Program-made: the position numbers and the translations under genes
Shown here: positions 6,038 through 40,874 of the stretch, one piece after another
How the letters are laid out: each line of letters begins with the position of its first letter
How positions within the stretch are numbered: position 1 is the stretch's first letter
Virus record (IMG/VR): IMGVR_UViG_3300050333_000073
Strand: one strand, 5' to 3'
DNA from: a virus
Length of the DNA stretch: 40,874 nt
The notes under the pieces: model-generated
What the model was told of the DNA's origin: nothing
Database searches by the model: none
What the model saw: the letters and a program-made list of their open reading frames with translations, nothing else

Positions 6038-7585
6038 TTAGTAAACGTAAGCTTCTTCCTCTTCTATATCAGGTTGTACTTTGAATAGACTGGCAAATAC
6101 TACGCTAGTAGCATCCACACGGTCTTTGAATCTTCCATTAGGGAAATCTGTATGTTCTTTAATGAAATCATAATTCCAATCTCCCTCAACTAGGTAAATG
6201 TTAAATAATGCTGCATGGTCAGCTACATTGTCAGCTCGGTCTTCTTTACTTCCAAAATAAGATTCTACAAATGGTTTGAAACTACATCCTGTTCCCTTGA
6301 ATGCCTCTGCATATCTTTCCATCTGGTCAATTGCAGCCTGGCCAGGGTCGTGAACTACAAGTGTGGGAACGTTTCTTAGTCTATTGTCTTTCAATGCCCG
6401 GGCCTTAATAGCTGTTCTAACTGCTCCGGGGGTTTCTCTTAAAGTTTCACAGTGATGTATAACAAAATCATTACTATGGGTTCTACTGGCCATGACACCG
6501 GCAGTTCTGGCCGGGCCTTGATCTTCACCTTGGCCCTGTTTCTTCTTTGTACCTGCTAAATCCCAGCCCCTCTTAGTTTGAAGCAGGTGACCAAGTAATG
6601 GGCTAGTTTTTGGGATAATTTTAAACCAATCAGCACTAAACACTTCACCTTCATCTGGTATTGGTGTTCCTTGGTACTGGGCATCGAACCGACCACGCAT
6701 TCTTTTCTTTTTGGCCAGTAAATCTCCTATTGGATGTAGGTCTGGGCATAGTGCTTCTCCAGGTTTGCGGCCAAGTATGTCATTCTCTTCAGCAATACCA
6801 GGTAAACGTAGAATCACCCAGGTATCCTTATCAATCGTGCCACCATTATGTAAAAATTCAAGGAGCTCCTGGTCCAGGTAAACATGAGGCTCATTAACAT
6901 TACCATCCTTATCATACAGGATCCGACCGGACAAGTCCCGAAGATCCCACCGGGTCTGAGTTATATTAATAAGCCCTTTTTTTGACAACCTGGTGTCAAC
7001 AACATCAGTATACCATTCATAAACGTTAAGTTGGATAACTGGGCTTTTAGCCTCTTTACGGCTTTTATGAGGGTCATCAATTCCAATAATATCCCCACGT
7101 TCACCAGTCACAGATGCATCTGCACCTGCACTATGTGACCCTCCTTCATGGTCTAAAATATCCCAATGATCCCTTGACTTGCTATCATGTTGTAAATATA
7201 AGCCCCACACTCGGTGAGCCCATCTTTGAAAAACGTCACGAGCTTTTTTATTCCATCTGGCAGCATAATCAGAACCATAACTACAACCAATAAAACGATC
7301 ATCCGGGTTTTCTCCTAGATACCAGACACGGAAGTATTGAGATAATAATAAACTTTTACCATGCTGAGGAGGCATCCAAGTCATTGACCGGTGAATCTGC
7401 CGGTTATTCATGAATAATAAAAGATCATCTAACAATCTGAGATGATCATATAACTTCCAACGACCATTACTGGCCATCATAGCCAGACAGGCCGGACTCA
7501 TCCTAGCCTGCTGAAGAGGATCATATAATAAATCTTCCACAACACCCCACCCTTTATTCTGTTTTTTCTGTGTTGCGAATTTCAC
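6038..7585 (-). CDS. terL: Terminase large subunit
   Basis: 515 aa with a Walker A-like PPQHGKS near the N-terminus and conserved acidic blocks (IGIDDP, WDLAG). Sits in the order TerS-TerL-portal. Confidence 0.85.
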   Translation of the reverse strand: MKFATQKKQNKGWGVVEDLLYDPLQQARMSPACLAMMASNGRWKLYDHLRLLDDLLLFMNNRQIHRSMTWMPPQHGKSLLLSQYFRVWYLGENPDDRFIGCSYGSDYAARWNKKARDVFQRWAHRVWGLYLQHDSKSRDHWDILDHEGGSHSAGADASVTGERGDIIGIDDPHKSRKEAKSPVIQLNVYEWYTDVVDTRLSKKGLINITQTRWDLRDLSGRILYDKDGNVNEPHVYLDQELLEFLHNGGTIDKDTWVILRLPGIAEENDILGRKPGEALCPDLHPIGDLLAKKKRMRGRFDAQYQGTPIPDEGEVFSADWFKIIPKTSPLLGHLLQTKRGWDLAGTKKKQGQGEDQGPARTAGVMASRTHSNDFVIHHCETLRETPGAVRTAIKARALKDNRLRNVPTLVVHDPGQAAIDQMERYAEAFKGTGCSFKPFVESYFGSKEDRADNVADHAALFNIYLVEGDWNYDFIKEHTDFPNGRFKDRVDATSVVFASLFKVQPDIEEEEAYVY

Positions 7586-8099
7586 TAATTAAATCTCTAG
7601 CCTTTGAACGTAAACTGGGATTTTTAGGGGGTTTAATTTGATTATTCACATAAACACTGACATCAGAACCATCTTTAATAACACCTAAAATTTGATATTT
7701 AGTTTTAATTTTCTGGTCCTTGGTCTTCAGGAGCTGGTTGAATAATCGACCTATATCTTTTTCATCCATGTCTTCCAGGATACTTGGATCTATTTCATTC
7801 AACCAGGTGTCAATCAGGTCGCAGTCTTTGTCAATTTTTTCAATGTCACTGACTTGCTCATCAGCTGCTTCATCCAACCTTTTTTTGCTTTGTTTCTCCT
7901 GATATTTTTGTCGAGCTTTTTCAGTGATGTTGAATTTATTGTTCCTATAACCGTTAATGGCCTGTCTGGATATATAAGCTCCTTTTTTCTTAGTCCACTT
8001 GGATATGTCTGTATCTTTCTTACCTTCTTTAATCATTTCCTCGATTTTTTCCCGGTAAGGGGATACTTCTACAGCGCTAGGTCTGGCCATTTTAATCAC
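7554..8099 (-). CDS. Terminase small subunit-like DNA-binding protein (start uncertain: GTG 8099 or ATG 8090)
   Basis: About 180 aa basic protein with an N-terminal HTH-like segment (DISKWTKKKGAYISRQAINGY). Overlaps the terL start. Confidence 0.5.
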   Translation of the reverse strand: MIKMARPSAVEVSPYREKIEEMIKEGKKDTDISKWTKKKGAYISRQAINGYRNNKFNITEKARQKYQEKQSKKRLDEAADEQVSDIEKIDKDCDLIDTWLNEIDPSILEDMDEKDIGRLFNQLLKTKDQKIKTKYQILGVIKDGSDVSVYVNNQIKPPKNPSLRSKARDLISEIRNTEKTE

Positions 8100-8277
8100 T
8101 TTTTGGAATGTCAGGAAATGTCAGGTTATTGTCAGGATTGTCAGGGAATGAAATAATTCTTTGTTGTCGTATCCAATACGTTCGCATCTGGTAAAGATGC
8201 ATTGTATCGTATTCTTCCTTAGAAATGGCATCATGGTTTTCTGGTTGGAAACCATATTCATAGGCTTGTTTTGGCAT
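8092..8277 (-). CDS. Hypothetical protein (61 aa); its 3' end carries the TGTCAGG repeats
   Basis: ORF overlaps the TerS start by 8 nt. The C-terminal FPDNPDNNLTFPDIP is encoded by the repeat array. Confidence 0.4.
   Translation of the reverse strand: MPKQAYEYGFQPENHDAISKEEYDTMHLYQMRTYWIRQQRIISFPDNPDNNLTFPDIPKSD
8109..8145. repeat. Four phased direct TGTCAGG repeats (candidate TerS binding / pac element)
   Basis: TGTCAGG occurs at 8109, 8119, 8130 and 8139, with spacings of 10, 11 and 9 bp. The array lies just upstream of the terS start. Confidence 0.6.
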
Positions 8278-8281
8278 TGTA

Positions 8282-8605
8282 TCACTTGAAAATAACTATA
8301 ATTGATATAAAGGCTCCTATGAAGACTCCCACCATCATGAAGATGTATTTTGTATTGGTGTTGTCCCCTTCCTTGATTGCTGTCCAGATGAGGTTTAGTT
8401 TTTTGTCGATGTTTTCTATTGTATCGTCTTGTCTTTTGTTTAGTTTTTCCTGGTCTTTTTCTATCCTGTTTAGTCTTTCTTCTTGTTTACAAGGGTGTGG
8501 TTGTGTTTGGCTGCTATTTATGGGGGGTATGGGTTGGTAGTATGGGTTATCATCTTCCTTTTCTTCCTGGAAGGTTTCGGTAATTTTATCTGCTTGGGTT
8601 GGCAT
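8282..8605 (-). CDS. Tail-anchored membrane protein (107 aa)
   Basis: GAGGTGA SD. Hydrophilic coiled N-terminal part and a single C-terminal TM segment, IFMMVGVFIGAFISIIVIF. Confidence 0.5.
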   Translation of the reverse strand: MPTQADKITETFQEEKEDDNPYYQPIPPINSSQTQPHPCKQEERLNRIEKDQEKLNKRQDDTIENIDKKLNLIWTAIKEGDNTNTKYIFMMVGVFIGAFISIIVIFK

Positions 8606-8655
8606 ATGGTTATCACCTCACCCTTGGGTGTATAAAGTGGTGGGGTCATCTGTTC

Positions 8656-8856
8656 TTAGGCTGACTCTTCTTTGGTTTCGGTGGTTGTGCGGGGGTAATA
8701 TGCGTTGAAAACAACTATTAACAGTGGTATTAATGCCAGGAACTTAGTGTAGTAAGGTCCCATTAGTGGCTCTACCAGTGAGGGATCTGCTAGTATTGCT
8801 GCGAATATTATCATGGCTCCGCTTATTACGTATGTGCTTATTTTTCCATTGTCCAT
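8656..8856 (-). CDS. Small two-TM membrane protein (66 aa), holin-like by size and topology only
   Basis: AGGAGG SD. Two hydrophobic segments. Confidence 0.5.
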   Translation of the reverse strand: MDNGKISTYVISGAMIIFAAILADPSLVEPLMGPYYTKFLALIPLLIVVFNAYYPRTTTETKEESA

Positions 8857-8894
8857 GTTTTTTATTCCTCCTTTTAATGAAATAGGTTATAATA

Positions 8895-8972
8895 TTATCC
8901 TGATAGTAATTTTAATAAGATGAATAAGATTAAAATGGCTAAAGCTAATGTTACAAGTGTATCATCAGACAT
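8895..8972 (-). CDS. 25-aa hydrophobic peptide (MSDDTLVTLALAILILFILLKLLSG)
   Basis: Hand-translated. AGGTG lies upstream of the ATG. Below the length cutoff of the ORF track. Confidence 0.3.
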   Translation of the reverse strand: MSDDTLVTLALAILILFILLKLLSG

Positions 8973-8984
8973 TAGGGGCACCTA

Positions 8985-9110
8985 TCATTTTTTTTGTAGG
9001 TAATTTGATTCAAAATGAACCTCTTTATGTTTGGGACATTCCCATTTTTTGGTTTGTGGATTGAAAAAAAGGGAGAGGCCACAGTATCCACATCTACGGC
9101 CTTTCTTCAT
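8985..9110 (-). CDS. Zinc-ribbon mini-protein, copy A (41 aa, MKKGRRCGYCGLSLFFNPQTKKWECPKHKEVHFESNYLQKK)
   Basis: Hand-translated. Shows a CxxC...CPxH pattern. Shares a 59-bp exact repeat with 10200..10322. Confidence 0.5.
   Translation of the reverse strand: MKKGRRCGYCGLSLFFNPQTKKWECPKHKEVHFESNYLQKK
9034..9092. repeat. 59-bp exact direct repeat, copy A
   Basis: ggacattcccattttttggtttgtggattgaaaaaaagggagaggccacagtatccaca is identical at 10243..10301. Confidence 0.95.
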
Positions 9111-9117
9111 AGTATCA

Positions 9118-9222
9118 TCACTCACAGTATAGGTATGCTCCCAGGTAGGTCATGGGTTCCCATCTGTATTTTTTGTAGTTGAATTGTTCCATGAATCCGT
9201 ATGCGTTTGTTGTTGCAGCCAT
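9118..9222 (-). CDS. 34-aa hypothetical peptide
   Basis: Hand-translated (MAATTNAYGFMEQFNYKKYRWEPMTYLGAYLYCE). GGAGGT sits 7 nt before the ATG. Confidence 0.3.
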   Translation of the reverse strand: MAATTNAYGFMEQFNYKKYRWEPMTYLGAYLYCE

Positions 9223-9259
9223 ATCTTTTTACCTCCATCCTTATTTTAAAAAAATGGGT

Positions 9260-9676
9260 TTAGAAAAGAATCTCATTGGTTTGGAAGCATGCATGAGCTT
9301 TCTGCCATGGTGTGGGCTCTGGTTGAACTGTTTCCATTTTGGAAATAGTTGGTTCAGGTTCTGGATAATACTTGGTTAAACGGGCTCTGGCACCATGGCC
9401 GGCTTTATCATAACCATTAGTACCATCATAATCTGCATTACATACCGCACAGGTCCATTCCCCTTCATAAGTGCATTTAGGATTCCATAATAAACAATCC
9501 CTGTGTCCACATAGGGGGCAGTGATCAATCCATGTGTAGGTGCCACTTTCTCCGTAGTAGTATCCTGATTGCACTGCGTAATGTGTGACAGTATTTACTG
9601 CAAAAGAACAAGGCAAAACAAATAACGTAAATAATAAAAGTAGTATTGGTACTCGTTTAATTAAATCACTCTCCAT
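9260..9676 (-). CDS. Secreted cysteine-rich protein (alternative start at 9712)
   Basis: Signal-peptide-like N-terminus MESDLIKRVPILLLLFTLFVLPCSFA. Mature part has 8 Cys, including HCPLCGH and CAVC. Confidence 0.5.
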   Translation of the reverse strand: MESDLIKRVPILLLLFTLFVLPCSFAVNTVTHYAVQSGYYYGESGTYTWIDHCPLCGHRDCLLWNPKCTYEGEWTCAVCNADYDGTNGYDKAGHGARARLTKYYPEPEPTISKMETVQPEPTPWQKAHACFQTNEILF

Positions 9677-9766
9677 TTGTGTATTTATGGATTTATGGTT
9701 TTTGCATTGCAATTAACCAATATGCCACTATGCCACGGAGGTTTAAGGTCTAATAAAGACCTCTGA

Positions 9767-10231
9767 CTACATAATATCACCATAAATTGCTTCTAAAACC
9801 AAATCATGAACTAATTCAGCACTTAAAGGATCTTCAAATGATCCTAATGATTTTGCATGATTGTTATACTTAATGATAGAATACCAGCATTTCCTTTCGC
9901 AATGGACTCTTTTTTCTAAACGAACTCCTGTAAAATTAAACAGCCCTTTATTCCGCTGGATAACACTCATTTTTAAATTATGCTCTCGAGAACATTTCAT
10001 TCCAGTTCTAGATTTACTCATTTTTTTCCTAGTCTCTAAAGAAACATTCCTACCTTTTTGAGCTTCACTCATTTTTTTACGTGATTTTAGTGAGTGGGTT
10101 TTTCCCATGCGAGCCATACTCATTTTTTTACGAGTTTCAATGGAGTGTTTCTTACCATAAAAAGGATGATTTTCTCCTTTCATTATTTCGCTTAATTTTT
10201 TACGAGTTTCCACAGAATTCAAAATTAACAT
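9767..10231 (-). CDS. NUMOD3-repeat DNA-binding protein; homing-endonuclease remnant with no nuclease domain
   Basis: Repeated HPFYGKKHSxETRKKMS-type motifs. The C-terminus (GLFNFTGVRLEKR...GSFEDPLSAELVHDL) is paralogous to the GIY-YIG protein at 21403..22317. No GIY-YIG or HNH motifs are present. Confidence 0.6.
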   Translation of the reverse strand: MLILNSVETRKKLSEIMKGENHPFYGKKHSIETRKKMSMARMGKTHSLKSRKKMSEAQKGRNVSLETRKKMSKSRTGMKCSREHNLKMSVIQRNKGLFNFTGVRLEKRVHCERKCWYSIIKYNNHAKSLGSFEDPLSAELVHDLVLEAIYGDIM

Positions 10232-10322
10232 CCTTATGGATTGGACATTCCCATTTTTTGGTTTGTGGATTGAAAAAAAGGGAGAGGCCACAGTATCCAC
10301 ACCGGCGACCCTTCTTTTTCAT
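10200..10322 (-). CDS. Zinc-ribbon mini-protein, copy B (40 aa), possibly a chimeric duplicate
   Basis: Hand-translated MKKKGRRCGYCGLSLFFNPQTKKWECPIHKDVNFEFCGNS. Its tail overlaps the start of the NUMOD3 gene in another frame. Confidence 0.4.
   Translation of the reverse strand: MKKKGRRCGYCGLSLFFNPQTKKWECPIHKDVNFEFCGNS
10243..10301. repeat. 59-bp exact direct repeat, copy B
   Basis: Identical to 9034..9092. Confidence 0.95.
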
Positions 10323-10327
10323 TTTTA

Positions 10328-11104
10328 TCACTTCGCAACTACAAAATCCATTAAAGTCTGTTGTTTACGTTGTTCAACCTGTAAGGTTTCAGCTGTTGCC
10401 ATCCGTTCCCTTATTATATTGCAGTAATCATGCTCCTTTTCAATAAGGATACAGTTACGGTTTAGGTTTTGACAAGCCACCCCGGTTGTACCACTGCCGG
10501 CACAATTATCAAGTACAAGGTCATTCTCGTTGGTGTAGGTTTTTATTAAGTATTCAAAGAGTGCCACTGGCTTTTGAGTTGGGTGTAAACCAGTTTCATT
10601 ATTAAAATTCAAAATGGATGTAGGATAACGACTTCCATCATTCTCAGTAACCCATCCTGCCACTTCTTTACCTTGTTTTTCTCCCATGAAGTATCCGCCA
10701 AAAGCTCTTTTGGCGGAGTAAGGAGTTCCTTCTGTCTTTTGTGGGTTGTATTGTGGGAGTTTATCATAAAAGATTAAAATGTTCTCATGCCTTTTTAATG
10801 GCATTTTGTTGGCTAATAAGAATCCTCCACCATTGGATTTCTCCCATATCCATTCATAACGGAACATGTCATAATTACTACTAATCAAACGAGTTGTAAA
10901 CGGTTGACTGGCTGTTAGTACAATAGCCCCATGGGGTTTAATCAATCGTTTATATTCAAGCCATAAATCCTCTAATGGTAAGATTGTATCCCATTTACAG
11001 GCTGTTGTACCATACGGAAGATCACAGAGTATCATATCCACTGATTCATCCTCAATCTCTGGGAAGACGTTAAAGCAGTCGTCCTCGTAGAGTTTCCATG
11101 ACAT
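10328..11104 (-). CDS. DNA methyltransferase (N6-adenine/N4-cytosine, beta-class motif order), orphan
   Basis: A DPPY-type motif (ILCDLPYGT) lies near the N-terminus and an AdoMet motif (DNCAGSGTTGVA) near the C-terminus. No adjacent restriction gene. Confidence 0.85.
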   Translation of the reverse strand: MSWKLYEDDCFNVFPEIEDESVDMILCDLPYGTTACKWDTILPLEDLWLEYKRLIKPHGAIVLTASQPFTTRLISSNYDMFRYEWIWEKSNGGGFLLANKMPLKRHENILIFYDKLPQYNPQKTEGTPYSAKRAFGGYFMGEKQGKEVAGWVTENDGSRYPTSILNFNNETGLHPTQKPVALFEYLIKTYTNENDLVLDNCAGSGTTGVACQNLNRNCILIEKEHDYCNIIRERMATAETLQVEQRKQQTLMDFVVAK

Positions 11105-21402: not shown

Positions 21403-22317
21403 TCAACAATCATCACCCCCTTGTTTTTTTACAATGTCATCATGAATGAATTCATGAAAAAGATCATGTAATATTTCACAGGATAAAGGATCAGGAAATC
21501 CCCCTATACTGATTTGATGTCCTTTATATCTCAATTTGGGTTTCCAAGGGGTGTTTTCAGGATTTTGTCTTTTTTCTAAATTAGCCCCAGTAAATCCAAA
21601 CAATCCTAATCCTCTTTTCGATTCGATCATTTTCTGTCTTGAAGATTCTAGTCTGGGTTTGCCATAGAAAGGATGATTTTCTCCTTTGACTCCATTGCAT
21701 TTCCCCATTTTGGCTTCGCTTATCCTTTTACATGTTTCAAGTGAGCGTTTTCTACCATAGTGTGGAGATAATGGGCCTTTTTTACCATACATATGATTCA
21801 ACGGACCACACTTACCATACATTGGATTTTTTGGTCCAATTTTACTATTCCTAATTTTTTCTCGATGTTCCTTTGATAATTTTTTACCATAACAAGGATG
21901 ATCTTTCCCAGATAGCCGGGCATGGTTTTCACGCAATTTTTGTTTATGTTCTTCTGAAAAAATTCTGCCTTTCATGGCTCTACTCATTTTTTGTCTAGTT
22001 TCTAATGCTAATTTTCCATCTCTTCCACCTTGACGAAGGTTATAACCTTTTTCAGAGTTCAAGGCATCATATTGATCCATAAAATGTATTTCTAAATGGT
22101 TTAGTTCTTCTCTAGAATTAGCCCAAATTAATATTCCAAATTTAAACCCATTTTCCCCATATTTATTAAAACTATTTTGTAAATGATTATTAGAGTGGGT
22201 TTTATTTCGTAAACTTCCGAAATGGTGTAAATAACGGACATGAGGGTCTTGAGTAGTCTGCCCAATGTAAACTTTACCATTTACTAAGTTCTGGATTTTG
22301 TAAATATAGCCATACAT
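21403..22317 (-). CDS. GIY-YIG homing endonuclease with NUMOD3 repeats and AP2-like C-terminus
   Basis: GYIYKIQNLVNGKVYIGQT is the GIY-YIG motif, followed by R..H and N motifs. Multiple HPxYGK...ETRxKMS repeats. Confidence 0.9.
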   Translation of the reverse strand: MYGYIYKIQNLVNGKVYIGQTTQDPHVRYLHHFGSLRNKTHSNNHLQNSFNKYGENGFKFGILIWANSREELNHLEIHFMDQYDALNSEKGYNLRQGGRDGKLALETRQKMSRAMKGRIFSEEHKQKLRENHARLSGKDHPCYGKKLSKEHREKIRNSKIGPKNPMYGKCGPLNHMYGKKGPLSPHYGRKRSLETCKRISEAKMGKCNGVKGENHPFYGKPRLESSRQKMIESKRGLGLFGFTGANLEKRQNPENTPWKPKLRYKGHQISIGGFPDPLSCEILHDLFHEFIHDDIVKKQGGDDC

Positions 22318-25733: not shown

Positions 25734-26654
25734 TTAAAAGGGCAGTTCAGCGTAACGGGTCACAGTCCCCACGATCTGACTGTCGCGAGGATTCAAACCG
25801 TACTGGTTGCCATTGTTTGAAGCATCCAACCGCACCCAGGCACCATTCACATAGGCTTCAACCCAAACATGGCCAGTGGTGATTGTAGAGAAGGCCACGG
25901 CGGAACAGTTCACATACCTTGCAGGTATACCAGCTGCACGGAGAAGGGCCACAAGAAGGTGGCTTAAATCGGTACAGTTACCTTGCTTATTTTTAAGTGT
26001 TCCCAGGGCTCCTAGTCTGGTATTGTAATAGAACAGGTATTCGATAGCGTCCCGGACATAATTGAATATTGCCAGGACCCCACCCAGACTATGGGCCAGG
26101 TTTTGTATTTGTGGGTCATTCACCTGGCAGTTCCTGGTAGCTATGAGATACGCTGAATCAGTAGTGGCCTTATAGTTTGGTATGGAACTCCACGTTTTAG
26201 GCCCGCATACTCCATCCTGACTGTGGCCAGTAGCGGCCTGGAATGAGATAACTGATGTTCGTGTAAGTGGTCCGAAATCTCCGTCAACTTTGCCATTGTA
26301 GAATCCAAATTCTTGTAGTTCCTGCTGTAATATTTTCACACAACCTCCACTGCTTCCCTGTTGTAGGGTGGTGTTGAGGCAGGATTCCAGTGTGGATCCA
26401 CTTGGTGCAGGTGTTGGTGCTGGGGTGGTTGCCCATGGGCATGGTGGGTACACTGCACTGTTCCAGGTTTCACATCCCACACAGCCGTCCACAGTTAGGC
26501 CGTGGTCTTTTTGCCAGCGGATTACTTCTTTTTCAAGTATGGGGCCGAAGTAACTATCTAATTTGTATCCTTTGTAGTATCCTTTCTGTTGCATTACATC
26601 CTGGAGCATGTAGACTTTTGGTCCTTTGCTCCCTTTGCTTAAATAACATGTCAT
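25734..26654 (-). CDS. Lysin: two PG_binding_1-like repeats plus a transglutaminase-core cysteine peptidase (pseudomurein endoisopeptidase-like)
   Basis: GSKGPKVYMLQDVMQQKGYY...DSYFGPILEKEVIRWQKDHGLTVDGCVGCETW and a second similar repeat. C-terminal catalytic pattern GNCTD...GHVWVEAYV...RLDASN (Cys-His-Asp). GGAGGT sits 7 nt before ATG 26654. Confidence 0.8.
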   Translation of the reverse strand: MTCYLSKGSKGPKVYMLQDVMQQKGYYKGYKLDSYFGPILEKEVIRWQKDHGLTVDGCVGCETWNSAVYPPCPWATTPAPTPAPSGSTLESCLNTTLQQGSSGGCVKILQQELQEFGFYNGKVDGDFGPLTRTSVISFQAATGHSQDGVCGPKTWSSIPNYKATTDSAYLIATRNCQVNDPQIQNLAHSLGGVLAIFNYVRDAIEYLFYYNTRLGALGTLKNKQGNCTDLSHLLVALLRAAGIPARYVNCSAVAFSTITTGHVWVEAYVNGAWVRLDASNNGNQYGLNPRDSQIVGTVTRYAELPF

Positions 26655-26706
26655 TAGAAATACCTCCAATTTTTTTATAGCGTTCGCTAAGTCTTTGAAA
26701 AAATGC

Positions 26707-29391: not shown

Positions 29392-31668
29392 CTAATGACT
29401 CCTCCTTCCAAATGCCCCGGCACTTATAAAGCCCATATTGTTTAAAACGGCCCGGTTATACATCATTTTACTTTCCAGATTCAAGTATTTCTTTAAATTA
29501 CTTTCCAACTTGTTCATCACCTGGCTGTAATAACTTCCAGGCCGGTTCACACTTACCCGGCTAATATACCCCTCGTCCCGGGTAATCGTATGAGTAACCG
29601 TTTTAGTCCCATAATTACCCACCAAATAGTAACCTGTAAGATTGCTTACCATGTACTGGGCCGGGTTTAAAAGGGGTGTTCCCTTTAAAAGGATGGTGAA
29701 ACTGGTAAGGGGGTAACTGTTCTGTTCTACATGTCGTTTTACCTCTATATCGGCATCTGTTTGATTGTTTATATCCGTGGAATCCTCGTAATCTTCCCAC
29801 GGCCCGGGACCATACCGGGGGATACTGTCCAAATTCATGTACCGGGCACTTCCAGTTCGGTCCTCTTCACCTTCCTTGTAATGGTAATGCATTAACCGAC
29901 TGTTACGGATTGTTTCATATGGGGCATAAGATTTGTCGGTTACTCCAAGGACATTCACCCCCTCCACTGCCCTTACCGGGCTTTCCAGGTTCATTTCCGG
30001 GGAAAGCATGAAAATATCAGTAGCCCGCCTACGGCCATAATCAACCCAAGCCACATATTCCATTTTTTCCAGAATTTCCATTATCACCTCGTAAGGGTAA
30101 CTGGTTTCCTGTTCCACCTTCATTTTTTTGTTTATAACGGATGGATATGCAGAAAGGCCCAATAAATGGATTATACTGTTTCTTCGGAACTCCATTTGGC
30201 TTGTGGAAACATCACTGTCCCTTACAACTATTTTAGTTACATTGTATTCACTGGAAGGAGCGTATTTATCAAAGGCTTCCTTTAAATCAAACTTGGATAA
30301 CTGGTTTAACCCATTAAGGACAGGTTTAATTTGGCCAATAATATTACTGGCCCCGGTTTTACCTGTGAAAAGAATGGTGTAAGTCCGGGCATCATCAATG
30401 GTTTCACCGGCCCGGTACATGGTAACTTCAATGTTCAACTGTACCCGGGTATCAATCCCGCAACTTTCACCACTGGCCATGTATTTAAAACAAAGAAGGT
30501 TATCCTTGGCAGCATCAAAGGGTTTATCCGGACTGTTCCATAAAATCCCATAATAATCTGTATTTTGGGCCACCCCGCAATAATCATAATCCAATGGGTT
30601 ATAACCTAAACGGAGGCCGGTACTGGGACTGTAAGTCTTGTTAAAACCATTCACCACCACCTGGTTATAATCATCTGGCCGGGTGAAATCCAAATTAAGG
30701 GTGTAAGGGTAAAGTATCCCATAAGTTAACGGCCCAAATTCACAAGTTTCACTGCAATGTCTGATACTTTCCAGGGCAGATCCGAACTGGACAACTGGGA
30801 AAGTGTATGTATCATCCCCACTCGGTGCCAGTCCAATATAATAATTTGTATAGACGGGTTTCCGGTAGAAATCAACCAACCGGTCAACCCCATTTATTGT
30901 TAATTGTGTACCCTCGTCGTTTTCATCCATTCCAAGCACGTAACCCCCAAATTTGACCCTTGCATCCTTCCAGTCATTACCAACACTGATGTTGAGTATG
31001 TCCATGAAATCGAAGACTTTCCGGCTGAAAATGTTAAGGTTAGGGTCGTTCCATTCCTCCCTGAGTGGTAGGGTTATGTCTGCACTGTTTAACTCCCCCA
31101 TGCTGTTCTCTGTGAACTCAATGTTTTCCCAGTCCAACCGGTACCTGCTCTTCCGGTGGTCGCTACTGTAATAATCCAACCGATACATCAAAAGATGATC
31201 CACCCATGCATCCAAGCCGTCCAGTTCAATCTTGAAATCATGCCATCCTTCGCTCAATTCATGATACCCAAAATCTAAAAACTTGTAATGTTCGGCATAC
31301 GGTGTAAGGGTGTTAATTTGGCCTATCAGTTCATTGTCAATATACAATTTAACATACTTGTTACCAAAAATGGGCTGTCTTGAGGCCCTGATAAGCATCC
31401 AGAACAATCCACCCTTTTTAATATATTGTCTGGTGGTAAGGTTTCCATTTCTAAGACTTCTTACACCGGTCAAGCCCACGATACGGCTTCCTCCAAGGTC
31501 CCTTTCGGCTATTTGGCTATTGCTTTTATCCCAATTCACACAAGGTAACTGGTATATATTGGATTGGTCCTTGCTCCATATTTCCACCTTGACGAAAGGG
31601 TCTTCGGTGTGATTAACCGGTGCAGTGTTAATCAATCGGGGTTGGAACTCTGCACTAATCATGTTCAT
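29392..31668 (-). CDS. Baseplate hub / tail-tip (Tal-like) protein (758 aa)
   Basis: Second large ORF after the tape measure gene. ATGA overlap with the upstream gene. Confidence 0.45.
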   Translation of the reverse strand: MNMISAEFQPRLINTAPVNHTEDPFVKVEIWSKDQSNIYQLPCVNWDKSNSQIAERDLGGSRIVGLTGVRSLRNGNLTTRQYIKKGGLFWMLIRASRQPIFGNKYVKLYIDNELIGQINTLTPYAEHYKFLDFGYHELSEGWHDFKIELDGLDAWVDHLLMYRLDYYSSDHRKSRYRLDWENIEFTENSMGELNSADITLPLREEWNDPNLNIFSRKVFDFMDILNISVGNDWKDARVKFGGYVLGMDENDEGTQLTINGVDRLVDFYRKPVYTNYYIGLAPSGDDTYTFPVVQFGSALESIRHCSETCEFGPLTYGILYPYTLNLDFTRPDDYNQVVVNGFNKTYSPSTGLRLGYNPLDYDYCGVAQNTDYYGILWNSPDKPFDAAKDNLLCFKYMASGESCGIDTRVQLNIEVTMYRAGETIDDARTYTILFTGKTGASNIIGQIKPVLNGLNQLSKFDLKEAFDKYAPSSEYNVTKIVVRDSDVSTSQMEFRRNSIIHLLGLSAYPSVINKKMKVEQETSYPYEVIMEILEKMEYVAWVDYGRRRATDIFMLSPEMNLESPVRAVEGVNVLGVTDKSYAPYETIRNSRLMHYHYKEGEEDRTGSARYMNLDSIPRYGPGPWEDYEDSTDINNQTDADIEVKRHVEQNSYPLTSFTILLKGTPLLNPAQYMVSNLTGYYLVGNYGTKTVTHTITRDEGYISRVSVNRPGSYYSQVMNKLESNLKKYLNLESKMMYNRAVLNNMGFISAGAFGRRSH

Positions 31669-33578
31669 ACTCCTTGAAGGCCTATTGCCTGTTTTGTGGG
31701 TCGGTAAAACTCTCTGGCCCTGTATATTGCACCATCACGGGCAGTATCGTTAATGTTACTGTCATAAACGATTATACCGGTTATCCCTTGATTTGCTGGA
31801 ATACTATTGCTTTTAATGGTGGTTTTATACTGTTGAGTTATCATCATACGGTATCTTTGAGCCGGGTTAGGAGTGGTACAAGTACCGGTTCCTTTATTCC
31901 ACATTTTACAATAAAAATCATCCAACATGGAAATATCCGCTCCGGCTACCGGGCTTATGGTAACATTTCCATCATGTTCGTAACAAGTCCTTAAAGTATA
32001 ACCAAGGTTATCATTGGGATGTTGCACATAAACAAACGGTTTTCCAGCACGAAGGGTCCAAAAAGTCCGGTCAAGTTGTAAGGTGAATTCAAATGGTGAT
32101 ACCTGGAAAGGCCTAATCAACCGGGTAAGATGGCTGAAAGTGAAAGTATCCATTAAAACATAATCCGTTCCATTCCAATAATACAGTTTCACCCCGTTAG
32201 TGGTGGGAACTAACTTAATAATCCCATTAGTTACATAGAATTTACCGATTTCAAGGTCCATCTCGTTATGAGTAACCAATCTAGCCACGTTATCCTTATA
32301 CTTACTATTCATACCCTTTACCGTGCCCTTGTAATAATTAGCAGGTGTGATCTGGAAATTAAGAGGGTCTGCAAGGTTTTCAAAACATTGAATATTACCT
32401 TCTGCGCTGGCCCGGTAAAAAGTAGGGACCAGGTTAGGGGTGGCATCTGGAGGTAACACTACAACATTGGGTTTATCACTTTCAAGGTAATTGTAAACCT
32501 TAACATCACTAATACTCATACTATTAGTTGTACTATCTCTGTTCAGGTAATATACTCCCATGTATAGGTCTTTCCAGGCACCCATATTCGTCGGACCGTA
32601 AAAAATTGTACTGAACCCAGTCCAGGAACCGCTCACATACCGGTTAAGTTCAATCTTCACATAATACTTACTATCAGTACTTAAACGGAATTTGAATGCG
32701 GTTGGGCTGTTATCCACAGTTATAGGTACAAGATTCCACCAGGAACCTCCCCCCGGACTTCCTATCGTGTGCACCTGGTAGTACTGGTTAGATGTGCTTA
32801 CACCTAAACTTACCATGTAACTGTTATTCCATACAGGAGGGTTAGAACTGCTCCTGTTCGGGCTGAACCATACGTTTATATCCTTATCTTTATTCCCAGC
32901 ACTTGGTTTGCTTCCAGGGTGAAGGGTGAACTCCATGACGAACCCGTGACTAAATTGTGTCCTGTGATTTGTCCACACCTGTCCAGGGACACCATCAGTG
33001 TCTGCCCCTCCACTGAAAACTATTTGACCCCCACTACTAGCAATAGCTCCATTTGCCATCCTATACTTACTTGCAGCGAACCAGTCGTTTGTAGTGTCAA
33101 AATCCGCTCCGGACTCGTTAATGATGTATGCAGGGGTTAAATCCTCATAATTATGTTCAATATCGGTCCCATCCTCCCCACCACGGGTATAATGCATGGT
33201 AAGAATTTCATCTACGTTGTTACTTATCAATTCTCCTTCCATCACTACACGGGTTTTGCGGGTGTTGATAAAATATTCCATAGGATTTGAAAGAGCAACT
33301 AATCCTTTTAGAATGCCTGTGTACTCATTCACAGAGGGGGTTACACTCTCAACTGGAGATTCTATTGGCATTAATCCCCATCGGTTGTTTTTACTGTGAA
33401 TTATACGTGGTTTATTCGATTCAGACCGGGTTAAAGTTTCACATAGACCGATTAATTGTTTTGCACGTTCAGGGGTGCATTTAATACTGAGGTTGAACTT
33501 CCCAAGGTCAGACTCAGGATCCACAATTTCATGAGCCTGGTCAAATTCTAAAGGTCCTATCTTTGCAAGGGTGGTCAT
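31665..33578 (-). CDS. Distal tail protein (Dit-like) with a lectin-like insertion
   Basis: Lies immediately downstream of the tape measure gene. Internal segment QVWTNHRTQFSHGFVMEFTLH...NVWFSP resembles concanavalin-like modules. Confidence 0.45.
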   Translation of the reverse strand: MTTLAKIGPLEFDQAHEIVDPESDLGKFNLSIKCTPERAKQLIGLCETLTRSESNKPRIIHSKNNRWGLMPIESPVESVTPSVNEYTGILKGLVALSNPMEYFINTRKTRVVMEGELISNNVDEILTMHYTRGGEDGTDIEHNYEDLTPAYIINESGADFDTTNDWFAASKYRMANGAIASSGGQIVFSGGADTDGVPGQVWTNHRTQFSHGFVMEFTLHPGSKPSAGNKDKDINVWFSPNRSSSNPPVWNNSYMVSLGVSTSNQYYQVHTIGSPGGGSWWNLVPITVDNSPTAFKFRLSTDSKYYVKIELNRYVSGSWTGFSTIFYGPTNMGAWKDLYMGVYYLNRDSTTNSMSISDVKVYNYLESDKPNVVVLPPDATPNLVPTFYRASAEGNIQCFENLADPLNFQITPANYYKGTVKGMNSKYKDNVARLVTHNEMDLEIGKFYVTNGIIKLVPTTNGVKLYYWNGTDYVLMDTFTFSHLTRLIRPFQVSPFEFTLQLDRTFWTLRAGKPFVYVQHPNDNLGYTLRTCYEHDGNVTISPVAGADISMLDDFYCKMWNKGTGTCTTPNPAQRYRMMITQQYKTTIKSNSIPANQGITGIIVYDSNINDTARDGAIYRAREFYRPTKQAIGLQGV

Positions 33579-33581
33579 GAT

Positions 33582-36500
33582 TTATCTCCCAAATCTGTAC
33601 TTTTTATCTCGTCTCGCTTCTTCATCGAACGCCTGTTTAGCATAGTCTTTAATCTGTTTCTTGTACTCTTCCATGCCTATGAATGTACCCCCTAGTTGTA
33701 TTGCGCCTTCATGGAAGTGCACCCCCCCAGAACCGGCATTACCAGGTCCCTGTGGCGGGGGTGAATAAGTGTTTGCCAGGGCCCTCCGGGTGGGATCATA
33801 ATCCACACCACCAGCCCGGAGCCAAACATGACTCATCCCATCATAAGTTCCCCAAACCATCTCAGTTGGAACACCAAACAATCCTTCAATCATGCCCATT
33901 AAGCCGAGAGTTGTATCGAAACAGTTCCCCCCATCAAAAACAGCATCTATTGGGTCCTTCAGGTGGCCTTCATAGGCCATGTATTCCAGGCCCGGACCAA
34001 TATCAGTCATGAACTGGGCAACAGTCATATTATTAGGCCCACTAGGAGGAGCCCACTGCCCACGCAGTAACATGGCGGCCATGTCGAAGGGTTGGCCTCC
34101 AATCACTGACCATGTGTGGGGGATGGCAGTTCCATTCCATAATCCGTTCTGCAACCATCCACCTAAGCCCATTTTTCGGTTGGCCTCGGTCATGAGGAAT
34201 TGGGCGCCGTCATAGCAATTACAGGTTCCAGAGTCCCAAACCTGTTGGTTAGACTTCTGATCACCCATATAAAATTCATATCCAAGGTGATCAGCCATAC
34301 CATTAGCAATGTCTGTGAATGCACTGATTCCTTTGAATCTTTTACTCATTGCACTGGCTATGTTCCCCTGGCCAAGGCCACTCATACTAGAAATTTCACC
34401 ACTAACCATATCCGTAAGTGGTCCTCGTGGGGGTCCACGGGATAAGAGTGTGCGGGCCCGTGAGGCGACATCTCCCGCCACATTACTGGCCCGGGTGCCC
34501 CCTCCGGGCCCCCATGGCCAACTAAATGGAGGTATGATTCCTCTAATAATCCCCAAAATATCTCCCACAGTAGGGATTTGCCACTTAAGCGGGTTGATTT
34601 TCTGCCAAGTCTGACTTAGGAAATCTCCCACCCCCGGGATCTTCCAGTTAAGTGGATTGATTTTCTCCCAGGTCTGACCTAATATCTGACCAACACTTGG
34701 GATCTTCCAATTCAAAGGATTGATTTTCTCCCAGACCCCATGGAGTATCTGGGACACATTTGGAGCTTTCCAGTTCAGTTTCGGCACTTTAGGCAGTAAC
34801 ACGTCCATTAATTTCCCTAGTATCTGACCTGCGGAGGGCCATTTCAAACCGGCCAGTGGCGTTCCACGGAGTACTCCTTTACTTCCAAAGATGTCGTCCA
34901 TGATTGAAGATTTACCACCTTTGCCAGCTGCACTGGCCGTGCCTGGGAGCACTTTTTTAAAAATAGATGCGGGATTTAAGAATTCGCTTAAACCTCTACT
35001 AACATCCCAGTTCTGGAGGGCAACGTCTAACCCTATAGGGAATCCTGGAAGGATGCCTTTAAGGGAGCTTGTGTTATATGTGCCCCACCATTGTTCCTTG
35101 ACGGTGGTGGCTGTGGAAGATTCTCCAGGAGATAAGGGTTGACCTCCCGCAGTGGGAGTGTATGTGGGTTGGTTTAACCTGCCAGTTGCATATTCAATGG
35201 CTGCATTGGTGATGTATATGGTTGCAGCTGCAATGGCAATTCCTCCAAGGACTGCCCCCCAATTAGTGCCTCCAGATTTTCCACCAGTTCCAGTTGTTCC
35301 CCCAGTCACTCCAGTAGAACGTTGGCTCTGGATGTAATCTCTTATTTCCGTGAATTTGTTAACTATTGCATCTTTAACACTGTTTAAAGGGCCGCTAACT
35401 TTGTCTTTTAGTCCTGAAAGACCTTGGGTGATTTTATCCCCCATGGAACTGATCCCATTTCCAGCCACATCTTTAAGCTTACCTAAAACTGAGGAGATCT
35501 TATCGGTAGGGATCATGTCCTTCAATTTACCCGCAAGTTGGAGGGCGCCACTGCCAAGGGTTTTGAAGATGCCTATAAATGGTCTGATAACCTCTCCGAA
35601 AATCCTAATTGCCCCTCCAACCATTCCCAATAGTCCTAATAAAAACACACCATCAGTAATTAAATCCTTAGTTCCCTGATCTAATCCTAAGAACCAATCC
35701 AATAACGGTTCAACTGTTTTTAAAAATTTATCAAAACTCTTAGTCAGTCCTAAAATAAGAGTGTCAGTAACCACCATTGCCTTGTTATAAGGCCCTAATG
35801 GCCCTTCAAAAGTAGTGCTTAACCCAGATGACCCTTTAGTTGTAGCCACCTTTTCCATGGCCGCAACACGTTCCTCGGGTGTTTGGGCTGATTTTAATAT
35901 TTCAGCCTGTTCTGGAGTTAAATCCCCACGGAATAATGCTTCACTGTACCCTCCAGTCAGGTATTGTCCAAAGTTCCTGAGCAATTCCTGTCTTTGATTC
36001 GGATTGGGTGAATGAGCAGCCGCATCCATTGCTGCTAACGTCCTAAAGGTTTGACCTTTAGGTGCGGCCTGCATTGTATATACCATCAGGTTTTGAATAT
36101 CCCTGTCAGGGGTTGAACTTGCCTGAGTATATTTCAAATACTGATCAGTGATGTCCTTGGCTTCCTCTGGTGATTTAGTATTCCCAAGCATTGCTTTGGT
36201 AGTGGCAATCCCTTGACCATATGAAAATAGGGTGCTTAACCCAGCTCCTCCAGCTACGGTGGCGAAAATGTCAGTTAACCCTGCCTGCATACTGCTAAAT
36301 TCATTGGATATTGATCTAACCCCTGCTGAAGCGGTGTTCTTCATTGATTGAATGGTTGCTGAGAATTTATTTTGCAAGGAGGTGAAGGTGATGGAGTGTA
36401 AACCAGAATTGATCGAATTTTTAACATTAGTAATACCGGAACTTGCAGTGCTCCGCATTTTATTAATAGCACCATTCAAGGTGCTGACTAATTTATCAAA

Positions 36501-36887
36501 ACGGGAGTTGTTAATCTGTTTAACTTGTTCTTCACTCTTTTTACTTTGATTGCCAAGTTCCCTTATTTTGCGAATAGTTTCATCAAGATTTGAAGGTTTG
36601 ACTACAATGTCCAAAGGTTTTGCACTTGACTGGAGACCTTTCACTTTTCGGATGAGTTCGTCTAAATTACTAGTAGCCTTGTCAAACTTGGAATTGTTAA
36701 TTTGGTCAACATTTTCCTTGGTTTTCTTAGCACCCTGGGCAGTGTCATCTAACTCTTTTTTTATTCCTGAGAAGTCAGGCCCTTTTATACGGGCATTTAA
36801 TTCACCTATTCTTTTCTTCCATTCGGAAGAAAACTCTGATGAGTCTAATATGAGTTTGGCTTTGACTACTCCGCCGTTTGCTGCCAT
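33582..36887 (-). CDS. Tape measure protein with two C-terminal transglutaminase-like cysteine-peptidase cores
   Basis: 1101 aa. Coiled N-terminal third with an internal QINNS(K/R)FDK duplication. Gly-rich TM-like middle. 21-aa tandem repeats. C-terminal GTCNCYDG...HTWSVIGGQPFD and GGNCFDTT...SHVWLRAGGVDYDPT. Confidence 0.85.
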   Translation of the reverse strand: MAANGGVVKAKLILDSSEFSSEWKKRIGELNARIKGPDFSGIKKELDDTAQGAKKTKENVDQINNSKFDKATSNLDELIRKVKGLQSSAKPLDIVVKPSNLDETIRKIRELGNQSKKSEEQVKQINNSRFDKLVSTLNGAINKMRSTASSGITNVKNSINSGLHSITFTSLQNKFSATIQSMKNTASAGVRSISNEFSSMQAGLTDIFATVAGGAGLSTLFSYGQGIATTKAMLGNTKSPEEAKDITDQYLKYTQASSTPDRDIQNLMVYTMQAAPKGQTFRTLAAMDAAAHSPNPNQRQELLRNFGQYLTGGYSEALFRGDLTPEQAEILKSAQTPEERVAAMEKVATTKGSSGLSTTFEGPLGPYNKAMVVTDTLILGLTKSFDKFLKTVEPLLDWFLGLDQGTKDLITDGVFLLGLLGMVGGAIRIFGEVIRPFIGIFKTLGSGALQLAGKLKDMIPTDKISSVLGKLKDVAGNGISSMGDKITQGLSGLKDKVSGPLNSVKDAIVNKFTEIRDYIQSQRSTGVTGGTTGTGGKSGGTNWGAVLGGIAIAAATIYITNAAIEYATGRLNQPTYTPTAGGQPLSPGESSTATTVKEQWWGTYNTSSLKGILPGFPIGLDVALQNWDVSRGLSEFLNPASIFKKVLPGTASAAGKGGKSSIMDDIFGSKGVLRGTPLAGLKWPSAGQILGKLMDVLLPKVPKLNWKAPNVSQILHGVWEKINPLNWKIPSVGQILGQTWEKINPLNWKIPGVGDFLSQTWQKINPLKWQIPTVGDILGIIRGIIPPFSWPWGPGGGTRASNVAGDVASRARTLLSRGPPRGPLTDMVSGEISSMSGLGQGNIASAMSKRFKGISAFTDIANGMADHLGYEFYMGDQKSNQQVWDSGTCNCYDGAQFLMTEANRKMGLGGWLQNGLWNGTAIPHTWSVIGGQPFDMAAMLLRGQWAPPSGPNNMTVAQFMTDIGPGLEYMAYEGHLKDPIDAVFDGGNCFDTTLGLMGMIEGLFGVPTEMVWGTYDGMSHVWLRAGGVDYDPTRRALANTYSPPPQGPGNAGSGGVHFHEGAIQLGGTFIGMEEYKKQIKDYAKQAFDEEARRDKKYRFGR
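34581..34795. repeat. 63-bp tandem repeat, about 3.4 units, inside the tape measure gene
   Basis: Units start at 34581, 34644, 34707 and 34770. They encode NPLNWKIPxVGxILxQTWEKI-type 21-aa repeats. Confidence 0.85.
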
Positions 36888-38993: not shown

Positions 38994-40115
38994 TTAAGGT
39001 ACTGTTCCGTAATTCAATTCATCCAATGGAGTGATCATAGTTACTTCAACTGGGTTGATCAAGCTATTGGCGTTTGAAACTATTTTTCCCTTCAATGTGA
39101 TGTTCTTATAGTCTTTACCACTTCTAGGGCTAGTTATTTGGTCTACTAATAGTTTGGGGATTACTATTTCCATATCTGCGTGGACTGTTGCTGCAGGGCT
39201 GACCACAGTTTCAATTACCTTCCCAGTTATTTTGATAATCACCTTCTTGAAAAGTGATTCTGTGGTGGGATCTGTACCATTAGATGAACCTGTAGCCCAT
39301 TCTGCCTCTAAGTTCATGTTGCTTTCATTGTAGTCCATTTTAATAGTGATTTCCCCAGAGAATGGTTTCCTATTCTTTTCAGGGCTGCCGAATGTGGTTC
39401 CTCCACAAGTACTGAGTTCTAAGTTGTTTTTCATGTTAAGACTTGCTTCTGTGTAGCAGTCAACTTTGTAGGTGTCTGTTTTGAGAGTTGCATCAGCCGT
39501 ACCTACTGGACCTATGTAAATTGCTGTCTGGTATGCTTTGAACCTGGTTTCAGTTTCAGGGAATACAAGTGTTGGTTCGGCTTGATTGTATTTAGGGAAG
39601 TCCCCCATGAACTTGGCCTTATATGATGGGGACTGGTTGGCGTTAAGTGTTAACTCAACAGAATCAACCATCTGGTTAATGTAAGCTTCTGGTTTGGCAT
39701 CTCCCCAGTTGAAACCTTCTATTATTGTAGCTACTGGTAGGTTTACTGGTGGGTCTGATGCGTCCCGGAAGAATTTATGTTTATATGAGGCTGTGGCTCC
39801 GGTGACTGCGGGGGTAACGGCATCTTTAGCCCCTAACAGTTGGAATAGTATATCCTCTATCCCCTCACCTAATCGGAGCTTGTCCTCTACTGATGGTGAA
39901 GAACTGGCCTCTTTCCTATCTTCACCTAAAAGGACCGTGTCCTGTCCTGTGTGTCCCTCATCTTCCTCAGAATCCATCTTATTATCAGGTTCGAAGGTTT
40001 TCATCTTGGGAAATATAACTGGTAACACTTTGCCCAGGGTTTGAACACCATCAGTGTAAGGGTTTAAACCATACCCCATGTAGTGAAGGCTGTTTGGTGG
40101 TGCGCCCATACTCAT
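38994..40115 (-). CDS. Major tail (tube) protein, putative
   Basis: 373-aa ORF after the head-tail joining genes and before the chaperones. GAGGTGA SD. Confidence 0.45.
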   Translation of the reverse strand: MSMGAPPNSLHYMGYGLNPYTDGVQTLGKVLPVIFPKMKTFEPDNKMDSEEDEGHTGQDTVLLGEDRKEASSSPSVEDKLRLGEGIEDILFQLLGAKDAVTPAVTGATASYKHKFFRDASDPPVNLPVATIIEGFNWGDAKPEAYINQMVDSVELTLNANQSPSYKAKFMGDFPKYNQAEPTLVFPETETRFKAYQTAIYIGPVGTADATLKTDTYKVDCYTEASLNMKNNLELSTCGGTTFGSPEKNRKPFSGEITIKMDYNESNMNLEAEWATGSSNGTDPTTESLFKKVIIKITGKVIETVVSPAATVHADMEIVIPKLLVDQITSPRSGKDYKNITLKGKIVSNANSLINPVEVTMITPLDELNYGTVP

Positions 40116-40336: not shown

Positions 40337-40800
40337 ACTTCCTCCTTCACAGCATAAGTAGCTGTGAAATCTGTGATCATCCTATGGGCCAGTACCTTTG
40401 GCCCTTCCCTACCTTGAACCACCCAGGGCATGGGTTTGGATTGGTTGTATTCAACGCTTTCAAGAGTTTCAAACCAGTCATGTTGAACTGATTCCCGGAA
40501 AATGTTCCTTGTTCTCTCCCGGTACTCATTCAAATCTGGCATGATCTGGTCCTTGGCGTGGTCGGGTTCAAGGTACTGGATCACTACTCCTGAGCACTGG
40601 TATTCATCAACACATCCCCCGGTGGATCCCATATCTTCGCCTTTTTCCACATCCAGATCCACACTTTGGCATGGTTTTCTGGTGTTGGCATCAACCTCCC
40701 AGAGTGATGGGTAGGTGGGTAATGTTTTAAGAATGGGGTCACGTTCGAGGAGTGAGATTATGTCCTTGATGCCCAGGTCTAGAATTCCAATCTGCTTCAT
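40333..40800 (-). CDS. Head-tail joining protein (155 aa); follows 60..917 across the window junction
   Basis: Its ATG (40800..40798) lies in the terminal repeat and corresponds to 53..51, just after the stop at 60..62. Confidence 0.45.
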   Translation of the reverse strand: MKQIGILDLGIKDIISLLERDPILKTLPTYPSLWEVDANTRKPCQSVDLDVEKGEDMGSTGGCVDEYQCSGVVIQYLEPDHAKDQIMPDLNEYRERTRNIFRESVQHDWFETLESVEYNQSKPMPWVVQGREGPKVLAHRMITDFTATYAVKEEV

Positions 40801-40874
40801 GAGGCATCACTTCAATACACTATAGCCTATCAGGTCTGTGTTGATGTAAGATTCGGCTGATTCTGAACTGGTAC
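40748..40874. repeat. Terminal direct repeat, copy 2
   Basis: Identical to 1..127. Confidence 0.95.

Follow-up and report, generated by a model that had tools for sequence, protein, structure and literature searches.

Viruses of the Methanobacteriales encode the transglutaminase-like Cys/His/Asp peptidases PeiW and PeiP (Peptidase_C71; PDB ID: 8jx4 and 8z4f), which are soluble endolysins, carry PMBR repeats at the N-terminus and cut pseudomurein from within at lysis. The tape measure protein (TMP) encoded by IMG/VR virus record IMGVR_UViG_3300050333_000073 (the window, i.e., the whole analyzed stretch of 40,874 nucleotides) ends in two domains, here called cores, which resemble these enzymes in their putative triad, their occurrence in viruses of the same order and a Y-x-Y-Y...N-C-x-D signature. 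Unlike PeiW, the cores are embedded in a TMP, lack PMBR repeats (no Pfam match to them anywhere in the protein) and are shorter, with 11 residues from His to Asp as compared to 17 in PeiW. The closest proteins with an assigned function are the Drs3-type endolysin (PMBR plus Transglut_core) and the lysin encoded in the window itself, both from the same virus group; these, however, are encoded by lysis genes of their own, contain wall-binding repeats and pass the Pfam Transglut_core model directly (2e-23).

The architecture itself has precedents, as wall-degrading modules inside bacteriophage TMPs (virion-associated lysins) have been described (PMC1796659, PMC6116005, PMC10194240). The Rpf-like motif of TM4, the muralytic C-terminus of T5 Pb2, the muramidase of phiIPLA35 and the enterococcal lytic transglycosylases are built in the same way and are presumably delivered by the tail tip at entry. 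They belong to other folds (lysozyme-like, M23, Rpf) and target bacterial murein, whereas the window cores adopt a predicted transglutaminase fold, are encoded by an archaeal virus, presumably target pseudomurein and comprise two paralogous units. Bacterial transglutaminase-like cysteine proteases (3isr, LapG, and CPR-C4) share the fold and the triad order with the cores and are among their top structural matches, but are cellular proteins with unrelated substrates and just 13-17% identity. In full-text literature searches, no paper was found that places a transglutaminase-like or Pei-like domain in a TMP, though an earlier mention may exist. Hence both the lysin-on-TMP architecture and the enzyme superfamily are known, and the novelty lies in their pairing, in the presumed target wall and in the domain of life to which the host belongs. 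The gene and its two cores are located as follows:

33582..36887, minus strand: TMP gene, 1101 aa (open reading frame call; weak match to PHROG tape-measure entries)
34035..34310, minus strand: putative peptidase core 1, 'type 1' subtype, aa 860-951 (101.6 bits with the hidden Markov model, HMM, of the domain family; structure model)
33744..34013, minus strand: putative peptidase core 2, 'type 2' subtype ending in PPPQGP, aa 959-1048 (97.7 bits with the family HMM; invariant columns; hhalign to the window lysin; structure model)

The sequence-only reading of this DNA held that the 1101-aa TMP ends in two Cys/His/Asp cores, and the open reading frame and all four motifs that it quoted were found. 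Two domains of ~90 aa occupy the last ~240 residues, core 1 containing DSGTCNCYDGAQFL (aa 885-898, 34194..34235) and IPHTWSVIGGQPFDMAA (aa 922-938, 34074..34124), and core 2 containing DGGNCFDTTLGLMG (aa 985-998, 33894..33935) and MSHVWLRAGGVDYDPT (aa 1018-1033, 33789..33836). The candidate catalytic residues are C891 (34215..34217), H924 (34116..34118) and D935 (34083..34085) in core 1, and C989 (33921..33923), H1020 (33828..33830) and D1031 (33795..33797) in core 2. The Cys codon originally proposed for core 1 (34221..34223) is misplaced by two residues, since the first of the two Cys residues in 'TCNC', C889, is encoded there; C891 is the conserved one, because it aligns with C989 and with the Cys of the lysin motif GNCTD, and the homolog P0001 has Thr at position 889. 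The two cores are 28% identical over 92 aa (E=4e-7, single BLASTP comparison). Both are bracketed by P-P-x-G-P / R-G-P motifs (aa 819-823, 34419..34433; aa 947-951, 34035..34049; aa 1044-1048, 33744..33758), which likewise flank the single type-2 domains of other TMPs and could represent linkers or proteolytic processing sites.

The cores belong to a sizeable family. An exhaustive search of 1.84 billion representative proteins with a profile of six close homologs (E<=1e-3) yielded at least 223 representatives of sequence clusters, most of them 650-3500 aa long; a word-indexed homolog search gave 5 to 19 matches, mostly fragments. Conservation, copy number and subtype were assessed in 153 proteins (the best 150 of the 223 matches together with earlier matches), in which the ~91-aa domain occurs in 177 copies, 130 proteins having one and 23 two, i.e., the tandem form is present in ~15% of the representatives. 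The last copy ends at a median of 95% of the protein length. In the 177 copies, conservation reaches 99% in each of the N-C-x-D, H and D columns and 96-99% at two upstream Tyr residues, against a mean column identity of 27% in the working alignment. A chance C..H..D pattern would fall far short of this. Such invariance of Cys, His and Asp, which bears out the expectation that the triad is conserved in homologs, indicates that catalysis has probably been retained. Single-domain representatives are evenly divided into core-1-like (67) and core-2-like (67) proteins, the latter nearly always continuing into PPxxGP. Since both subtypes are found singly in other TMPs, the tandem of the window joins two old paralogous subtypes. 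The 'duplicated' enzyme of the sequence-only reading therefore stands as far as the homology of the two cores is concerned, but not as a recent duplication, the subtypes being anciently diverged. The domain constitutes a sequence family that is not captured by current Pfam.

The relationship of this family to known peptidases emerges from several profile comparisons. When 76 members were scanned one by one against Pfam, 43 matched Transglut_core (PF01841; best E=3.1e-8), five Transglut_core3 and four the CEP76 peptidase-like domain, while nine weakly matched Peptidase_C71 (PF12386; best E=1e-3), the window sequence not being among the nine. Searched against all PDB sequences, the family profile retrieved PeiW first (8jx4_A, E=2.5e-4) and a pseudomurein endoisopeptidase second (8z4f_B, E=4.7e-3), followed by other transglutaminase-like proteins; the match to 8jx4 spans the N-terminal half alone, up to the Cys helix. 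One of the two closest proteins with an assigned function is encoded in the window:

25734..26669, minus strand: endolysin in which two PG_binding_1 repeats are joined to a Transglut_core catalytic domain (Pfam, 8.9e-30 and 2.1e-23)

The catalytic half of this protein is 54% identical to the lysin of Methanobacterium virus Drs3. In hhalign, the family profile aligns with the catalytic domain of the window lysin at a probability of 94.9% (E=4e-8) and pairs the three triad residues Cys, His and Asp, in agreement with the proposal that core 2 mirrors the catalytic pattern of the lysin. The family HMM scores 34 bits with the Drs3 lysin, 33 bits with the window lysin and 21 bits with PeiW, and does not match the TMP of psiM100. 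On the strength of these HMM and hhalign scores, family C71 is more distant from the cores than are the Drs3-type Transglut_core lysins, and the window endolysin is, as far as sequence can tell, their egress counterpart and distant paralog.

Structure prediction is in line with this assignment. An AlphaFold2 model computed from a 76-row alignment reached a predicted local distance difference test score (pLDDT) of 90.6 (an earlier model from 6 sequences had a pLDDT of 49) and gives both cores one topology. The Cys occupies the N-terminal end of a long helix (model residues 39 and 137). Of the strands that follow, the second has the His close to its start (residues 72 and 168), and the Asp comes just past the third (residues 83 and 179); judged from the secondary structure of the model, this is the canonical papain/transglutaminase arrangement. 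Top Foldseek matches in the PDB were a TGase (4xz7), a putative cysteine protease (3isr), a transglutaminase-like domain protein (9y6s_8G), CPR-C4, LapG and PNGase, with probabilities of 0.85-1.0 (best-ranked 4xz7, 3isr, 9y6s_8G, CPR-C4, and LapG) and 0.14 for PNGase, and E-values from 8.5e-3 to 1.5; Rad4 was also matched. No protease fold other than the transglutaminase-like one appeared among the top 50 matches; the NlpC/P60 and CHAP folds were rejected, as neither the Pfam searches nor the 50 best Foldseek matches included them. In BFVD, strong matches (E about 1e-7) were limited to a Drs3 protein annotated as 'prominin', which is the TMP of that virus, and one other viral protein. Taken together, sequence profiles and the model place the cores in a divergent, compact (~90 aa) and unannotated branch of the transglutaminase-like (papain-clan) cysteine-peptidase superfamily. 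The similarity to the transglutaminase fold suggested earlier is thereby upheld at the level of the family, both in the Pfam matches of homologs and in the proteases matched by the model.

Among annotated viruses, the domain has a narrow distribution. In tblastn searches of 50,697 phage records with three queries (the window C-terminus and one representative each of type 1 and type 2), matches were found only in the TMP genes of five Methanobacteriales viruses, namely Methanobacterium virus PhiF3, Methanobacterium virus Drs3, vir249, Methanobrevibacter gottschalkii virus vir075 and MSTV1; no bacteriophage record was matched. Three of the five (PhiF3, Drs3 and MSTV1) are cultured, and their domain is of type 1. 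All five share the tail-module arrangement with the domain inside the TMP, and the domain-bearing proteins are deposited as 'prominin', 'hypothetical protein' or plain TMP.

Sequence, model and analogy together suggest that the cores are probably a virion-delivered pair of pseudomurein peptidases used for entry. The C-terminus of a siphovirus TMP is located at the tail tip and is the first part to leave the virion after receptor binding (T5 Pb2, TM4, and lambda), so that peptidase domains in this position would reach the pseudomurein sacculus. Upon ejection, the two cores would be put onto the sacculus and would locally cut the peptide or isopeptide cross-links of pseudomurein, comparable to the action of PeiW and PeiP from inside the cell during lysis. 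The path opened in this way would be taken by the hydrophobic segments of the TMP, on their way to the membrane, and then by the DNA:

35586..35666, minus strand: TMP hydrophobic segment 1, aa 408-434, a candidate membrane-inserting stretch (Kyte-Doolittle scan)
35196..35258, minus strand: TMP hydrophobic segment 2, aa 544-564 (Kyte-Doolittle scan)

As the two subtypes are old and each is also found singly, carrying both in tandem may extend the range of bonds that are cut or unite separate specificities. It is a rather doubtful extension of this proposal that the cores are the first recognized family of virion-associated pseudomurein hydrolases and a general wall-breaching device of most Methanobacteriales siphoviruses, with each core cutting a different bond (e.g., the epsilon-Ala-Lys and gamma-Glu-Ala isopeptide bonds); if true, this would provide a compact two-specificity lysin acting on methanogens from outside.

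Several observations weigh against a pseudomurein peptidase at the tail tip. The window TMP, its 249-aa C-terminus and each core alone have no match to Transglut_core even at E<=10 (Pfam gathering threshold 23 bits), and the family consensus scores 16.8 bits, under the same cut-off. A direct profile match of the C-terminus to Transglut_core or peptidase C71, which the sequence-only reading had looked to, is thus absent from Pfam: direct searches gave just a weak 24-residue match to DUF7197 (E=0.012), one long unannotated PHROG entry and no match among PDB sequences. The transglutaminase signal emerges only with the family profile. With PeiW alone, hhalign returns a probability of 18%, and PeiW is absent from the 50 top structural matches. 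The Foldseek E-values are modest, the best being 8.5e-3, as a single core makes up just half of the query. The window endolysin has bacterial-type PG_binding_1 modules in place of PMBR repeats. One relative of the window, contig CAZUZI010000028.1 (TMP 51% and 637-aa homolog 36% identical to those of the window), comes from a metagenome-assembled genome (MAG) labelled Candidatus Saccharibacteria. Finally, the TMP of psiM100, the prophage from which PeiW originates, has no peptidase domain (ORF21, L003 21192-24665), so that not all Methanobacteriales siphoviruses possess the module.

The alternative that fares best assumes a protease acting on the proteins of the virus itself, which would process the TMP or tail proteins during assembly or ejection, e.g., at the P-P-x-G-P motifs. 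C-terminal processing of TMPs is known in bacteriophages (lambda gpH and T5 Pb2), and the conserved PPxGP / RGP motifs around each core, present in single-domain homologs too, would suit such a role. The nearest relatives with a known or assigned function are nevertheless wall-lytic (the Drs3-type lysin, the window lysin, and PeiW), a general assembly protease would not need to be restricted, among annotated phages, to viruses of pseudomurein-walled hosts, and two distinct subtypes in tandem would be hard to account for. Self-processing consequently appears improbable.

Still less credible is the possibility that the cores are transamidases, i.e., true transglutaminases that cross-link tail proteins mutually or to wall peptide and so anchor the tail. 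The fold allows transamidation as well as hydrolysis, the first-ranked Foldseek match is a TGase, and pseudomurein is rich in Glu and Lys isopeptide chemistry. The characterized small prokaryotic and viral members of the fold (PeiW, PeiP, LapG, CPR-C4, and PNGase) are hydrolases, however, and the best sequence matches of the cores are lysins.

A bacterial host, in which the cores would cut ordinary peptidoglycan peptides, is suggested by PG_binding_1 in the lysins of the window and its relatives and by the contig binned with Saccharibacteria. This contig was the only one returned by a scan of genome contigs, and it is probably a mis-binned viral contig because it contains the same viral tail module. 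The annotated matches, on the other hand, are all viruses of Methanobacteriales, including the cultured ones, and the catalytic domain of the window lysin has its counterpart in Drs3. Moreover, a close relative of the tail module is found on L006, a 35-kb contig of Methanobacterium sp. MAG GCA_050950625.1, which ends in a lysin with PMBR (faint Pfam match) and Peptidase_C39_2. A bacterial host is on these grounds highly unlikely; a pseudomurein-walled host, as initially proposed, is well supported by the confinement of the domain, among annotated phages, to TMPs of Methanobacteriales viruses, the Drs3-like lysin and the tail match in the Methanobacterium MAG, and the host genus is probably Methanobacterium. 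In L006, the TMP is split inside core 2 into overlapping open reading frames of 1105 aa (6708-10025) and 88 aa (10001-10267), reflecting either a frameshift or an assembly error.

The cores might instead have lost catalysis and serve the tail tip as wall-binding or structural modules, as their unusually small size for the fold (~90 aa) and the missing direct Pfam match might suggest. This is very hard to reconcile with a triad conserved at 99% over copies that are otherwise ~27% identical on average.

An exact direct terminal repeat of 127 bp (1-127 = 40748-40874) implies that the window is a complete, terminally redundant viral genome of ~40.7 kb. Its GC content is ~40%, and all long open reading frames judged to be genes are on the minus strand. 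The TMP is a single reading frame flanked by tube and chaperone genes and by distal-tail genes, the Phage_tube_2 tail tube gene (38994..40115) lying upstream; the large terminase gene is located at 6038..7585. Three plus-strand frames overlapping the TMP (33683..34012, 33979..34215, and 34200..34445) are unsupported and were taken as shadows of its frame. Downstream, the TMP gene is followed by genes for three proteins (637, 758 and 566 aa, in this order) and by the endolysin gene. Coiled-coil-like stretches, hydrophobic segments and tandem Trp repeats are typical of tape measure proteins; in the window TMP, coiled-coil-like matches were obtained for the N-terminal part (Pfam and PHROG), and 3-4 tandem Trp units, which the homologs P0002 and P0003 carry too, are located directly upstream of the peptidase region. 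Beyond the cores, the prediction for the 249-aa construct has a helix at residues 220-248, with low confidence.

34518..34742, minus strand: TMP tandem Trp repeats of 21 aa each, W-x2-I-N-P-L-x-W-x-I-P, aa 716-790 (sequence reading and regular expression)
33585..33743, minus strand: TMP C-terminal tail past the cores, aa 1049-1101, Gly-rich and then a charged helix (kept in close homologs)
31665..33578, minus strand: 637-aa protein in distal-tail position, i.e., tail-tip context (directly downstream of the TMP; gene order kept in 20 IMG/VR loci; 36% identity to L006)
29392..31668, minus strand: 758-aa protein in tail-associated or baseplate-hub position (54% identity over 761 aa to L006; gene order conserved)

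The order TMP, ~635-aa protein, ~745-aa protein is common to the 20 IMG/VR loci, whose TMPs contain either one type-2 domain or a tandem pair. Among L008-L027, single type-2 TMPs (650-790 aa) are encoded on contigs of 33-41% GC and tandem TMPs (940-1419 aa) on contigs of 42-44% GC, like the window; the exception is L021 (44% GC, 1096 aa), with a single domain. The split suggests two host or virus sublineages. Lysins of IMG/VR relatives combine PG_binding_1 with a C39-like Peptidase_C39_2 domain (Pfam scan; L018 18336-19703 and L014 18516-19352), and a phmmer search of the IMG/VR flanks with PeiW as the query gave no lysin of the PMBR or C71 kind. The window also encodes a GIY-YIG and NUMOD3 homing-endonuclease-like protein (21403..22317, minus strand) and an N6/N4 DNA methyltransferase (10328..11104, minus strand).

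Little is known of how archaeal viruses get past the envelope of the host when they enter it. A review from 2024 on their entry and egress mentions enzymes that degrade pseudomurein solely in the role of egress endolysins, and raises the question of whether wall-degrading enzymes are present in more archaeal virions (PMC10791045). For pseudomurein-walled methanogens, the conserved ~90-aa module at the TMP tip offers a concrete and testable answer to this question. An outside point of attack would also make such enzymes potential lytic agents specific to methanogens, with possible uses in methane mitigation in ruminants and in the preparation of protoplasts for methanogen genetics.

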